A stretch of 64,000 nt of DNA from a virus. Its lineage: Duplodnaviria > Caudoviricetes. Positions within the stretch are counted from its first letter, which is position 1; every line of letters starts with the position of its first letter. Below the pieces are notes generated by a model. It made no database searches and was not told the DNA's origin. It was given only the letters and a program-made list of their open reading frames with translations. The stretch spans positions 1-64,000 of the IMG/VR virus record IMGVR_UViG_3300011989_000009. One strand, given 5' to 3'. Below are positions 50,735 through 64,000 of the stretch, piece after piece. Made by a program: the position numbers and the translations under genes.

Positions 50735-51616
50735 TTAAAGTGTATACTCTGGTAATGTGATATGGAAATAATCTTCTAAAAACTTTTTGTAATCAACAGA
50801 TTCTCCAAAGATACCCCCCCTAAATTCCTTTTGGGTCATCAACCATTGCTGATACTGATCGTATCTGTCGAAGAAAACGTTGGCATAGAAATATTGATAT
50901 ACATTTCCATGATAGTTCTTGACGACATCAGAATCCTTATGTGACGACATAAACTTCCATGCCGCACGAAGATAAGCCTTCACCATACCTGGATAGACTT
51001 TGAACTCAGCAAGACGACCTTTGTAATACTTCAACGGACAGCATATACAGCCCAAACGCCGGGAAATATCAACAGAACCATCCTCTCGATAATACAAAGG
51101 ATGGAGCTTTATCTTGCGCTCATTGATGAAGTCAAGCTCGTCTTTATCCGTCCAGTCAAGAATGGGATATATAGCATTGGCATGCACAGCCTTACTGCCA
51201 TAGATACGGCATTCCGTTGGCTCTGAGTAGCGCTTATAGCGCTTGGTACTCTCACATCTACGAATCCCCATCACGACATTATCCATCACCTTGTACTCTT
51301 TCAGCACTTCGCAACAGAAACGATGCCTACGATTAGGAAAGCCTTTGGCAGCAACTAAATGGAAGAAGGTCTCATTCTTGCGAATGATCTTTGCTCCCTG
51401 TTCCTGTACATGCTTGATAGTGCCCGGCGGGTCTATAGTAGTGTTCTTGTATATGGCACGGTACTCTATCCCGCTCATTTTGGCAAGCTCCAATATAACA
51501 TCAGAATCCTTGCCACCACTATAAGCTATCTCCAACGGCTCACCAGCAGCCTTGTAGCAAACTTGCAAGAGCTTAACAGCTTGCGAAACTTTCTTCTGTA
51601 AGTGTATATTCATCAT
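50735..51616 (-). CDS. PAPS reductase family (CysH/DndC-like) protein
   Basis: AYSGGKDS PP-loop; FCCEVLK; RLGCICCP. Confidence 0.88.
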   Translation of the reverse strand: MMNIHLQKKVSQAVKLLQVCYKAAGEPLEIAYSGGKDSDVILELAKMSGIEYRAIYKNTTIDPPGTIKHVQEQGAKIIRKNETFFHLVAAKGFPNRRHRFCCEVLKEYKVMDNVVMGIRRCESTKRYKRYSEPTECRIYGSKAVHANAIYPILDWTDKDELDFINERKIKLHPLYYREDGSVDISRRLGCICCPLKYYKGRLAEFKVYPGMVKAYLRAAWKFMSSHKDSDVVKNYHGNVYQYFYANVFFDRYDQYQQWLMTQKEFRGGIFGESVDYKKFLEDYFHITLPEYTL

Positions 51617-57216: not shown

Positions 57217-57528
57217 TGTCTCTTATGTTTATTATGTCTTTACTTGTTTTTCGTCTTGATTGATGACTACACCCCAAACTCAAATTCGGCCATAGTTGGC
57301 CACTTGCTTTTGCGTTTCCGTTTTGGTTTGTTTTGCCCCCCCATTTACGTTGCGAGAGGTAACAAGGGCATCCTTCCCAAGGAATGGCTGACAAACTCAT
57401 ACCATTGTAAATGCTTTTAGCGCAATGACATTCATCGTGGTAGTAATCCACGCAACCGATGCACTTCGGCTCGTAACCTGTTATTATGCTTATTTTCTAT
57501 CTCCTTATAATTTTGCCTGTATTCAGGA

Positions 57529-59477: not shown

Positions 59478-60494
59478 TTAGTAAGGGTTGTGATACAGCG
59501 TAAATCCGTTCTGCTTACAGATATAGAAGAAGGTGCGGATGCTGACGCGCCCCGAAAGCTGCGCGAAGGAACTCCATTTGGCTTGCAACTCCTGCATAGA
59601 GTGTCCTTGTGCGTGTTCCTGAGCACGGAACACTGATAATCGCCACCAATAATGCAGGCCGACGTTGCCGAGATTGTACAGCGACATGCCGATATGCAGC
59701 CACTGATCATAGCTGCCGGTGATGTCAGCCCCACGCTGCTCTATCTTCTCCACCAACCGCTCCACATCAGCCTCCAGTGCGTCTTTCGTCTCGATGCGCT
59801 CACGGTAGACAGGACGCGGCACGAGTACCTGCCCGCCCATGTCGATACCGCTGTAGGCGATAGCGTTCTCATTGATATAGGGGTTATCATCATACGATGC
59901 GAAGCGGATGCGGGTAATATCGCTGCAATGAACATCGAGAACGATGCCCAATGCCGCATAGTCACGACGGATAGCCTTGAACTGCTCTTTATGATGCTCC
60001 GGATAAGCCAAAGGTATCAAGGCAAAATAGCCGGTACCACTACATGACTTCATGCACAAAGCTACCTCAGGACGATGGCGCAGGACACGCAGGATCGTTG
60101 TCATATCCTCTACGCTCTGATTGTCCTGACGGTCGATGTCGATACAGAGAAACCCAGTGTGCTGTTTCAGATTCTCCGTGATACGGCTTTTCATCACCAT
60201 CCGGCCATAACGCTTGTCAAAGGTATCACGAAGCTCAAAGAGGCCGGAGAGCGTAGCCCCAGGCAATAAGGTCTTGATCTTCTTGTACTGCGGCATCGCC
60301 TTCGCCTCTTTCGCTCCGTATTCGGCAATCATGCCCCTCAGTCGGTCCACCGTCGGCTTCCATCTGTCCGTAAGACAGAAGTCACGGATGGTCATCTGCT
60401 GGATGATCTCACCCGTCTCACGGTCAACGTACTTGCCATAGTTGTCGTGAGCGTCAACATAGACCGAACATAATTTGCCGAATATATCTTTCAT
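59478..60494 (-). CDS. BT4734/VirE-N family primase-like protein with PriCT-2 domain
   Basis: TGFLCIDID, SCSGTG, DITRIRFASYD, YDQWLHIGMSL. Confidence 0.82.
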   Translation of the reverse strand: MKDIFGKLCSVYVDAHDNYGKYVDRETGEIIQQMTIRDFCLTDRWKPTVDRLRGMIAEYGAKEAKAMPQYKKIKTLLPGATLSGLFELRDTFDKRYGRMVMKSRITENLKQHTGFLCIDIDRQDNQSVEDMTTILRVLRHRPEVALCMKSCSGTGYFALIPLAYPEHHKEQFKAIRRDYAALGIVLDVHCSDITRIRFASYDDNPYINENAIAYSGIDMGGQVLVPRPVYRERIETKDALEADVERLVEKIEQRGADITGSYDQWLHIGMSLYNLGNVGLHYWWRLSVFRAQEHAQGHSMQELQAKWSSFAQLSGRVSIRTFFYICKQNGFTLYHNPY

Positions 60495-61870: not shown

Positions 61871-63205
61871 TCAGAGGGCTCTTTCTATCACGAGAGAGGC
61901 ATTGGTGCCACCGAAGCCAAAGTTGTTGAGCAACGCTGTTGTTATCTTTGCCGACTGAGGGGTGTGGGGTATGTTAAGATGACGAGCGGCGGGGATGGGA
62001 TTCTCTAAGTTGATGTTTGGTGAGACGAACTCGCCCCTCATCTGCATGATGGTATAGACGACTTGTGAGACGCCAGACATCCAACACTCGTGACCCGTCA
62101 GACACTTCGTGGCAACGACGTAAGGGCGTGCATATACTTCTTTTTCCGTATGCTTGCTGCCAATAAAGGTATCACACATACATGTGATTGCTTTTGCCTC
62201 GGCTTCGTCACCCTCAACAGTGCCAGTGGCATGTGCCATCACCATATCAATATCAGAGAAGAGCATATCAGCGTCATTACAGGCTGCGCACATCGTATGA
62301 ACATAGCTGGCGTCATCAGGCTTGATGATAGAGTCGGATGTGGAATAACCATACCCGGAAACAACGGCGAGGGCAGGAATAGCCTCGGCAATCTTCGGGC
62401 GGTAGGTGTACAAAGCCATACGGTCGTGAAGAAACATCGGTGGCGAACAACGCTCCATGACGATGGCAGCAGCACCGCCGGAGGGCACAAGACCATCGTG
62501 CTTCTCGTCGAAGGGACGGGAGGCATGGACAGGATCATCAGACTGAGAGAAGATACCCAGTGAGTCGAAAGCCCACGAGCTGACGACATCATCTTCCTGG
62601 GCACCGACGACGATGCAGCGGTTCACTGCCCCACTCTCGATGAGCGTCTTGGCCAGTCCTACAGCATGACCGCCACCGGCACAGGCGGCAGAGACGGAAA
62701 GCGTAAGGCCACGGATATGAAAGAACTGCGATAGGGTCATACTCACGTTGCTGTTGAGCGTCTTGAAAACGCTGTAACCGCCTAAAGCCCGCGTGTCGTT
62801 GACCTCACTCATAATATCACCGATCTGCACGGTCTCTGCGATGGCACTGTCTGACGACACGATAAGGGCGGAACTGGACAAATCTACGTCCGTGAGTTTT
62901 GCTTGCTCCACAGCCTCGCCAACGGCCATTGCTGCCCATATTGCCTGCTCGGTCATAGCCTTACGGACGGCTTGGGAAACGTGATACTTCTTTATCAGTT
63001 CCTTCCATCTCGCTGCGTCTTCCGAGGTTCTGTTAGCAACAACGCCCATCAGACTGCTCTGATAGCCGTTTGCCTCACGCAAATCTGAACGGGAGAGACC
63101 GCTCTGACCATTCGCGAGATGCTGAGCTACCTTGTTCAAGCCGATACCAATACACGAACAGATACCCATGCCCGTGATCCCTGCTATTCTTTTGTCTTGT
63201 CGCAT
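61871..63205 (-). CDS. Beta-ketoacyl-ACP synthase (FabB/FabF-like)
   Basis: SAACAGG catalytic Cys, AHATGT, GHECWMSG, NNFGFGGTNASL. Confidence 0.92.
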   Translation of the reverse strand: MRQDKRIAGITGMGICSCIGIGLNKVAQHLANGQSGLSRSDLREANGYQSSLMGVVANRTSEDAARWKELIKKYHVSQAVRKAMTEQAIWAAMAVGEAVEQAKLTDVDLSSSALIVSSDSAIAETVQIGDIMSEVNDTRALGGYSVFKTLNSNVSMTLSQFFHIRGLTLSVSAACAGGGHAVGLAKTLIESGAVNRCIVVGAQEDDVVSSWAFDSLGIFSQSDDPVHASRPFDEKHDGLVPSGGAAAIVMERCSPPMFLHDRMALYTYRPKIAEAIPALAVVSGYGYSTSDSIIKPDDASYVHTMCAACNDADMLFSDIDMVMAHATGTVEGDEAEAKAITCMCDTFIGSKHTEKEVYARPYVVATKCLTGHECWMSGVSQVVYTIMQMRGEFVSPNINLENPIPAARHLNIPHTPQSAKITTALLNNFGFGGTNASLVIERAL

Positions 63206-63462
63206 ATACTTGGTTTTAAAGTTAATAACACGTCGGCAATATCGCCGACCGTCTTAATGTTTCCCAGTTGCTCTCTCGACACCTTTACTTTGAAGTGCGT
63301 CTCGACAACCAACACAATATCGATTTTGGCGAGAGAGTCAAAACCTAATTCCTCCAAGGTGGTGCTTTCTGTATGTTCCACCTTCTCTTCCGGCGCAAAC
63401 TCCGGCTCCAGCCGTTGCAGAATGAGCTGGAAAAGATCATCTATCAATTCTGGACGTGTCAT
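63184..63462 (-). CDS. Acyl carrier protein (second, divergent)
   Basis: TLEELGFDSLAKIDIV; overlaps the ketosynthase start. Confidence 0.85.
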   Translation of the reverse strand: MTRPELIDDLFQLILQRLEPEFAPEEKVEHTESTTLEELGFDSLAKIDIVLVVETHFKVKVSREQLGNIKTVGDIADVLLTLKPSICDKTKE

Positions 63463-63602
63463 AATGTATATTCTATTAAAATACAATGTGGGCACTTGAA
63501 GTCAGTACTCCGAAGCGAGGGAGAGATTGTTTTCCACCCCCCCCCAGATGATTGCCACTCAAAAGAATGACTGACTATGTTCACACCCACTTTAAAGTTC
63601 AT
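63459..63602 (-). CDS. Poly-G mini-ORF (47 aa, G9, in frame)
   Basis: MNFKVGVNIVSHSFEWQSSGGGWKTISPSLRSTDFKCPHCILIEYTL*. Confidence 0.6.
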   Translation of the reverse strand: MNFKVGVNIVSHSFEWQSSGGGWKTISPSLRSTDFKCPHCILIEYTL

Positions 63603-63771
63603 ACTCTATAATGATTTTACCTACATGCGCAATCGTCAATGTTGCCATTGGATTACGCACGTTTATTAACTGCATCTCGCTTACCCCCCCCTGACGCTCA
63701 TCACCCGTAAAAAAGCGAATATTGCCATTCGGAAGCCAATGAGCGAAGATGCCACATTTCCTTGCTTTCAT
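63592..63771 (-). CDS. Poly-G mini-ORF (59 aa, G8, in frame)
   Basis: MKARKCGIFAHWLPNGNIRFFTGDERQGGVSEMQLINVRNPMATLTIAHVGKIIIEYEL*. Confidence 0.6.
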   Translation of the reverse strand: MKARKCGIFAHWLPNGNIRFFTGDERQGGVSEMQLINVRNPMATLTIAHVGKIIIEYEL

Positions 63772-63909
63772 AATTCGTACTCTATAAAAAGCATTGCATT
63801 TTTCTGACTGCTTGTAAGCGCATTCGAGAACGACACACTGCCAAGTTCAAGTTGCTGATACGTTTTACCACCCCCCCCTACCACGCAAAGCGCAACACAT
63901 ATATATCAT
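63768..63909 (-). pseudogene. Poly-G mini-ORF frameshifted at G8 (phase OFF)
   Basis: MIYMCCALRGRGG then stop. G7 restores ..GKTYQQLELGSVSFSNALTSSQKNAMLFIEYEL*. Confidence 0.6.
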
Positions 63910-64000
63910 AGTTCATAATTTATTAATATTTTAGGTTTGTCAATATCATGGCCTTGCCCCCCCAATTACGGCAGGAGATATACCAAAACGAGAGACAACT
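63906..64000 (-). pseudogene. Poly-G mini-ORF frameshifted at G7 (partial, phase OFF)
   Basis: ..VVSRFGISPAVIGG then premature stop. G6 or G9 restores ..QGHDIDKPKILINYEL*. Confidence 0.55.

Follow-up and report, generated by a model that had tools for sequence, protein, structure and literature searches.

A permuted C5 cytosine methyltransferase flanked by an array of putative phase-variable specificity minigenes in a phage of gut Bacteroidales

We analyzed the first 64,000 bases (the window) of IMG/VR virus record IMGVR_UViG_3300011989_000009, a phage of gut Bacteroidales, and found that the small open reading frames (ORFs) at its right edge belong to an array of minigenes that surrounds a C5 cytosine methyltransferase and is homologous to the target-recognition domains (TRDs) of such enzymes. 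We consider it probable that this locus is a multispecific C5 methyltransferase split into individually phase-variable specificity subunits. A more ambitious proposition is that the enzyme has detachable TRD mini-subunits of about 50 amino acids (aa), drawn from a library of about a dozen that each carry a hypermutable switch, giving up to some 2^11 heritable methylome states from 3 kb, and that such systems occur widely among gut and rumen phages and phage-plasmids of Bacteroidales; in our judgment this could go either way. The record is 92,785 bp long and is rated 95% complete. Its numbering runs on from that of the window, and we also read the continuation of the array up to dnaN.

Results

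An array of coupled mini-ORFs

Reading the minus strand in three frames from 66800 to 63400, we found 11 head-to-tail mini-ORFs of 38 to 67 codons at 63459-66646, between dnaN, which encodes the DNA polymerase III beta-clamp (66648-67793) and forms the upstream border of the array, and the gene of an acyl carrier protein (ACP). All are on the minus strand, as are both bordering genes. The mini-ORFs lie on both sides of the methyltransferase gene, which we call unit E, and the chain of small genes is unbroken from the dnaN stop to the ACP start. Nearest to dnaN, unit A (66455-66646; 63 aa) contains a run of eight G (G8) and is in frame (ON), while unit B (66312-66465; G6) is broken (OFF). Units C (66146-66319; 57 aa, G8) and D (65992-66156; 54 aa, G9) are again in frame. 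Then comes unit E, the permuted methyltransferase (64534-66002), whose own (cis) TRD is out of frame with a G8 tract at 65949-65956. It is followed by unit F (64419-64601; 60 aa, G8 at 64486-64493), which shares the last 68 nt of the enzyme gene, and by unit G (64232-64429; 65 aa, G8 at 64373-64380), both ON. Unit H (64049-64228; 59 aa) is open and has no tract.

The four remaining units are those that the original prediction, made from the window alone, had described as at least four consecutive unannotated ORFs at 63459-64000, with one G7-G9 tract each and a common I-[EN]-Y-[ET]-L-stop ending, two of them in frame and two broken at the tract. Our reading agrees throughout. Unit I (63906-64059; G7 at 63957-63963) is broken at its tract and ends in INYEL-stop; its ATG, at 64059, is 59 nt beyond the window end. 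Unit J (63768-63909; G8 at 63871-63878) is also broken, with an N-terminal CALRGRGG piece and a C-terminal IEYEL piece, before the stop, in different frames. Units K (63592-63771; 59 aa, G8 at 63684-63691, ending in IEYEL-stop) and L (63459-63602; 47 aa, G9 at 63537-63545, ending in IEYTL-stop) are in frame. The one-base repair proposed for the broken units works for both I and J, which are each restored by the loss of one G (or the gain of two). The peptide motifs quoted for these ORFs are all present, and each stop overlaps or abuts the following start, as had been noted.

This coupling is tied to a conserved ending. Every mini-ORF finishes with two to three hydrophobic residues and then a tail such as E-Y-E-L. 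The tail DNA, roughly GAATATGAAyTATAA, holds the ATG of the next unit, or else the stop overlaps the next ATG as ATGA; the stop of unit L overlaps the ATG of the ACP gene in this manner (TTATGA). An ATG inside the tail of unit I opens a frame that ends at a TAG made with the first G of the J tract. Since this frame is a dead end, the true start of J must be the ATGA-overlapping ATG at 63909. We rejected frameshifting at the unit junctions, which lack a slippery site and are coupled in the ordinary way, by ATGA or by an embedded ATG. An alternative genetic code was likewise rejected, since TAA, TGA, and TAG each terminate units and the adjacent genes read normally. A scan of the operon found terminator-like sites no more often than background, and 17 promoter-like sites versus 9.6 in shuffled sequences (standard deviation 3.6, an excess of about two standard deviations), using a sigma-70 consensus that is not informative for Bacteroidales.

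Homology of the mini-ORFs to target-recognition domains

The proposal that the mini-ORFs are TRDs is supported by their homology to two proteins, the fused multi-TRD protein P0199 and the TRD-core fusion P0016. P0199 is a metagenomic protein of 588 aa with about nine tandem TRD-sized segments directly ahead of motifs IX-X, and its gene comes after a 222-aa gene bearing motifs I-VIII. Judged by this motif content, the two genes encode an M.AquI-like split enzyme with a multi-TRD subunit. The segments of P0199 correspond in tandem to units D, E-cis, A/G, F/J, B, L, and K. In BLAST comparisons, unit K matches residues 407-449 with 51% identity over 45 aa (expect value [E] 4.5e-8), and matches were also found for unit A (E 1.3e-8), the cis TRD of unit E (E 1.3e-5), unit L (residues 374-387; E 4.7e-5), and unit J (E 0.005). 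These five are thus distinct modules that match successive segments of one multi-TRD protein. The in-frame piece of unit B had no BLAST match to P0199, and its correspondence was judged by eye alone. In the relative P0016, a TRD of the unit B type is fused directly before the MIAK of the core.

A profile of the A/G type, compared with 1.84 billion representative proteins, retrieved 83 clusters, most of them free-standing. Their representatives are almost all 43 to 106 aa long and match up to their own C terminus. With conservative clustering, at least 13 families of TRD bodies occur in three or more loci. The only PDB match of the D-type profile is to residues 236-259 of the M.HhaI TRD, and it is weak (E 0.36). 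The TRDs of the array are not joined in one polypeptide: each has its own start and stop, in shifting frames, and at most one (the E type) can be fused to the core in this record.

The permuted C5 methyltransferase

The original prediction pointed to the sequence beyond 64000 as the place to look for a methyltransferase and more units. A C5 methyltransferase begins there, 534 nt beyond the window end, together with further TRD units. Unit E matches PF00145 with an E of 4.5e-48 (164.8 bits versus a Pfam cut-off of 22), is the sole PF00145 gene in the record, and has the conserved motifs I, IV (PCQ), VI (ENV), VIII, IX, and X by which members of the family are recognized. The Pfam match comes in two blocks (128.6 and 38.2 bits), with model positions 270-322 ahead of positions 31-252. 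Residues 86-140 align to M.HhaI 271-318 (motifs IX-X) and residues 225-383 to M.HhaI 49-198. By these alignments, the enzyme is circularly permuted, in the order TRD-IX-X-I..VIII that is typical of type H enzymes.

The coupled ATG of unit E is at 66002, a second ATG is at 65963, and the conserved start of the core, MIAKF, is at 65793. From the coupled start the gene reads M-I-R-G-G and then TAA right after the G8, which leaves the cis TRD OFF. A 98%-identical homolog of 489 aa from a wolf-gut metagenome (P0001) is in frame and has a TRD-like segment with G-T-L-T-T followed by the core. The AlphaFold model of the enzyme is confident for the core, from about residue 70 at the beginning of MIAKF. 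About half of 60 permuted homologs are called from the Met of MIAKF, and this Met is near-invariant even in fused forms. In two related loci, L006 and L008, the core ORF opens at MIAKF directly after the stop of a free TRD. Cores that start at this position without a cis TRD would have no recognition domain unless the adjacent minigenes provide one. At L006:4985-5005 the free TRD and the core are in one frame, separated only by a TAG and one Lys codon (..EYDL-stop-K-MIAKF..), where read-through of the stop would yield a TRD-core fusion protein.

Enrichment and conservation of G tracts

Tracts of G6-G9 are found in ten minigenes and in the enzyme, which makes 11, all within coding sequence. The whole record has 13 runs of at least seven (12 C-runs and 1 G-run), and 10 of the 13 are in 63537-66600, all of them G on the coding strand; by our own estimate, about 0.1 would be expected in 3.1 kb at the rate found elsewhere (3 runs in about 90 kb). 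The codon use of the tracts is also unusual. GGG is the rarest Gly codon of the record (8% of Gly codons), and none of the 78 Gly-Gly pairs in its 32 long ORFs is written GGG-GGG, as every tract of the array is. Orthologs of units L, A/G, and D carry the tract at the same positions across relatives, a pattern that indicates maintenance by selection. The bias extends to 53 related loci, where coding-strand G-runs of at least seven outnumber C-runs 219 to 29, and 20 of these loci carry 5 to 14 tracts around the enzyme. The fused P0199 gene has no tract, and the tracts thus appear to accompany the split form.

Elsewhere in the window, the only other coding-strand runs of seven G are at 50814-50820, within a 293-aa ORF (50735-51616), and at 57336-57342, both on the minus strand. 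At both, the G-G frame is open for about 50 codons upstream (..FRGGIFG.. and ..RKWGGKT..), and these runs are possible further contingency loci.

Tract lengths differ between close relatives

Invariant tract lengths would have spoken against phase variation. Instead, lengths differ between close relatives and the differences switch frames. A 4.1-kb alignment with L003 and L004, a 97%-identical wolf-gut relative, contains six indel events, all of them in G tracts. Between the record and L003, 6 of the 11 tracts differ: A (8/9), B, E (8/9), F (8/6), G (8/7), and L (9/8). On translation, units A, F, G, and L are ON here and OFF in L003, whereas B and E are OFF here and ON there; units C, D, H, and K are ON, and I and J OFF, in both. 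A similar proportion was found between L026 and L027, which are 96.6% identical and differ in 6 of 12 tracts. Homopolymers inside reading frames, with polymorphic lengths and stable flanks, are what characterizes a contingency locus, and on these features the array qualifies as one.

We classified tracts in further relatives with a procedure that matched our manual calls for the record and for L003. Across 19 loci, 155 tracts could be classified, 53 ON and 102 OFF. About one-third in frame is the neutral expectation and fits switching that is fast relative to divergence. The same fraction suggests that there is no selection for frame continuity at the DNA level, as would be the case if all modules were expressed whatever their tract length, through slips of RNA polymerase or the ribosome on G runs, with the tracts setting a dose and not a heritable ON/OFF state. 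The conservation of both halves of broken units at the protein level (see below) would also be in line with this. On the other hand, tract lengths differ heritably between close relatives, as in a contingency locus, and the tracts show no evident slippery heptamer or stimulatory structure. Transcriptional slippage, moreover, is best documented on long A/T runs. We therefore regard expression by slippage as unlikely, though it is the best placed of the alternatives to a split, switching methyltransferase.

Coding constraint, conservation, and spread

The minigenes evolve as coding sequences. In the comparison of the 11 mini-ORFs with L003, the annotated frames have 17 synonymous to 14 non-synonymous substitutions, versus 6:25 and 4:27 in the other frames. 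The same families, tails, and overlaps, in similar order, are found in relatives whose enzyme is 55-80% identical. In broken units, the parts before and after the tract are both conserved, each in its own frame, as is characteristic of a gene sampled in its OFF phase. Intact, tract-free orthologs of J occur in L006 and L008, and in-frame orthologs of unit I in L008 and L010.

These data bear on the possibility that the minigenes are silent cassettes, or decaying pieces of a multi-TRD gene that was once fused, so that the enzyme would use its cis TRD alone and the rest would be a recombination reservoir or have no function. A fused version does exist (P0199), the G tract and the tail DNA are short conserved flanks common to the units, and many of the units are out of frame. 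Yet the bias to synonymous substitutions in the annotated frames, the conservation of unit order and start/stop overlaps in the relatives just mentioned, and the 83 clusters of free-standing homologs for the A/G family alone all argue against decay, as do the intact cores that lack any cis TRD. As for recombination, the shared flanks are 8 to 15 nt, too short for homologous exchange, and the units are all in direct orientation, so that exchange would delete genes. A reservoir of cassettes or relics is, in our estimation, slightly less credible than expression by slippage.

A third possibility, that the frame breaks and length differences are homopolymer errors of sequencing or assembly in minigenes that are constitutively in frame, had been raised with the original prediction and is very improbable: homopolymers are error-prone on some platforms and one contig end has an aberrant G11, but two wolf-gut assemblies agree on 7/7 fully assembled shared tracts (their sole discrepancy is tract D, at the contig end of L004), the sequences of another strain from two separate runs are 100% identical across 2.6 kb with six tracts, the differences are found only between diverged strains, and tracts of the rarest Gly codon at conserved orthologous positions would still need explaining. 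As far as can be judged, the agreement between the assemblies and between the runs makes the tract lengths reproducible calls.

The architecture is found in dozens of Bacteroidales phage contigs, several of which have enzyme cores without an attached TRD. Alignment-based scans retrieved 44 related loci in IMG/VR and 69 loci in bacterial assemblies, whereas a scan with the single enzyme sequence found none. The closest genome matches, and most of those with G-tract arrays, are from Prevotellaceae, Muribaculaceae, and other Bacteroidales; among the more distant matches are Firmicutes and other phyla. Units L, A, and K had no tblastn match at E up to 1 in 50,697 GenBank phage records. One locus is in the assembly of a cultured isolate: Contig204 of Prevotella sp. 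MGM1 (L084, the same as IMG/VR locus L048), a phage-sized contig of 90,283 bp with the enzyme and eight G tracts. This suggests a resident element, possibly plasmid-like, and a tractable model. In the record itself, a protein of the BT4734-like/PriCT_2 primase type, typical of Bacteroidales mobile elements, is encoded at 59478-60494 (minus strand), in agreement with the host assignment. In a 91-kb relative, a DUF772 transposase gene (L005:6963-8657) interrupts the downstream TRD array midway, and G-tract units resume beyond it.

Neighboring genes and other methyltransferase-type genes

Downstream of unit L are the ACP gene (63184-63462, minus strand; PF00550, E 7e-8), whose ATG overlaps the stop of the unit, and a beta-ketoacyl synthase gene (61871-63205, minus strand; PF00109 and PF02801), which overlaps the end of the ACP gene. 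The original prediction had suggested that the array is coupled to this pair. The ATGA overlap bears this out here, and the coupling is absent in more distant relatives. The ACP gene follows the array in L003 and is missing from L005, L006, and L007, where other genes succeed the array. We therefore rejected the pair as a part of the system. For unit L, a word-based search aimed at longer homologs yielded P0121 alone, a metagenomic protein of 138 aa that is a read-through fusion of L and ACP.

Further along the record, a 257-aa ORF at 76015-76788 (plus strand; L056:1016-1789) resembles a methyltransferase, with an EPCCGEGH motif-I-like block and an NPPY motif, and has no Pfam match. It holds the only other G8 tract of the record (76397), in frame (W-G-G-Y) and preceded immediately by about 45 oddly composed residues. 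The phage may switch this second methyltransferase in the same way. The ORF is followed by a ThyX-type thymidylate synthase gene (76815-77726, plus strand; PF02511) and by a gene for a D12-class (Dam-like) adenine methyltransferase (77527-78816, plus strand; PF02086). The phage thus encodes at least three DNA methyltransferase-type genes.

Discussion

A model for a multispecific methyltransferase in pieces

The original prediction envisaged a split DNA methyltransferase with separately encoded specificity subunits. A methyltransferase core does lie nearby and the mini-ORFs are homologous to TRDs; the core itself is permuted rather than simply split, and action of the modules in trans is the part of the idea that we can only propose. 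We suggest the following model. The G6-G9 runs in the ten minigenes and in the TRD of the enzyme would slip during replication, so that each module switches ON and OFF independently and heritably through its own tract. Modules that are ON would be translated by coupling to their upstream neighbor, and the core (motifs IX-X, then I-VIII) probably from its conserved internal Met, MIAKF. There would be 12 modules, 11 of them separate minigenes and one that becomes part of the core protein only if its own tract is in frame. The ON modules would dock in the gap of the core where motif VIII ends and motif IX begins, the terminal strand of the module taking the place of the strand that precedes motif IX in M.HhaI, and each docked module would add one methylated target sequence. 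The tail of the minigenes may serve this docking, or may be conserved solely for the next start codon. A population would then carry many combinations of methylation, which could protect against host Type II restriction where the mark is required and allow escape from methyl-dependent restriction where it does damage. The likely pay-off would be bet-hedging between two kinds of restriction system, one evaded by the absence of the mark and the other by its presence.

Several observations weigh against this model. The embedded start codon and an AT-rich initiation region could by themselves explain the conservation of the tail. The peptides are very short, and single mini-ORFs have a significant match neither in Pfam (one zinc-finger match, E 0.11, is at chance level) nor in the PDB. 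The AlphaFold model of a free A-type TRD, based on 47 homologs, is of low confidence (mean predicted local distance difference test score [pLDDT] 60), and so is the N-terminal cis TRD segment in the model of the enzyme (pLDDT <50). Finally, the fraction of tracts in frame also fits frame-independent expression by slippage. Given that the trans function with the core is proposed and the peptides are small and not confidently folded alone, the products could act elsewhere, as TRD mimics that decoy or inhibit host methyltransferases or restriction enzymes, or as DNA-binding regulators, but this has very little to recommend it, since the minigenes always flank a permuted core, their families are elsewhere fused to motifs IX-X or to the core, and the TRD-less cores would then be left without a recognition domain.

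Significance

Full-text literature searches found no published description of arrays of free-standing or individually phase-variable TRDs. The ingredients are known: multispecific phage methyltransferases, split and permuted C5 enzymes, polyG phase variation, and phage contingency loci. Their combination, and a detachable TRD, are not. If the free modules work in trans, no C5 methyltransferase before this one would have had specificity subunits that can be exchanged; the modules would be the C5 equivalent of HsdS in Type I systems, and the enzyme would offer a natural plug-in scaffold with which cytosine methylation could be programmed. By combining methylation marks, the phage would hedge its bets across hosts, some of which cut unmethylated and others methylated DNA. 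Phages of uncultured Prevotella, Muribaculaceae, and other Bacteroidales commonly carry the system, and it could therefore shape their host range; in plasmid-like residents it could shape the epigenomes of the hosts in gut communities.

Comparison with known systems

One of the closest parallels is with M.SPRI, M.Phi3TI, and M.Rho11sI of Bacillus phages, anti-restriction enzymes in which one core serves tandem TRDs of about 45 to 60 aa, each with its own target. Their TRDs lie in one polypeptide between motifs VIII and IX and have no repeat tracts. The locus described here shares with them the single core, the several TRDs, and the presence in a phage (phage rho11s is a weak tblastn match of unit E), and differs in that each TRD has its own gene and G tract (H is without tract), that the core is permuted, and that there are 12 modules. 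The P0199 type (L011) uses the same TRD families (A/G, B, E-type, J, K, and L). There, the TRDs are fused to each other and to motifs IX-X, without a G tract, motifs I-VIII belong to a second protein of 222 aa, and the core is unpermuted.

Two bacterial systems provide the switching and the exchange. In phasevarions, which are mostly based on adenine methyltransferases, homopolymer slippage turns methylation ON and OFF, and Type I systems derive their specificity from a separate subunit, HsdS, that can be exchanged. These systems have one switch per enzyme, or an inversion, whereas here up to 11 independent switches would act on one C5 core, in a phage.

C5 methyltransferases tolerate natural and artificial splitting (PMC3404938, PMC5944983), and M.AquI and M.EcoHK31I are assembled non-covalently from two polypeptides (PMC3404938). 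M.AquI is split inside the variable region, and the small subunit of M.EcoHK31I bears motif IX and not a TRD; each of the two enzymes has one fixed partner and no exchangeable set. Natural permuted enzymes of type H (M.BssHII, M.Alw26I, M.Esp3I, and others) have a chain that begins in the variable region and places motifs IX-X before I-VIII (PMC5944983). Unit E has the same permutation; the type H enzymes have a single cis TRD and are not described with extra TRD genes or tracts. Lastly, phages are known to use hypermutable repeats for bet-hedging, as in the polyG tracts of receptor-binding proteins of Campylobacter phages and in T2/T4 (bioRxiv 10.1101/2025.10.21.683753). Those contingency loci affect tail or host-range genes, with one tract each, and a methyltransferase tract is mentioned there in passing (bioRxiv 10.1101/2025.10.21.683753). 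By comparison, the array around unit E would have contingency loci at a higher density than seen so far in any phage, and these would serve counter-defense instead of the recognition of host receptors.

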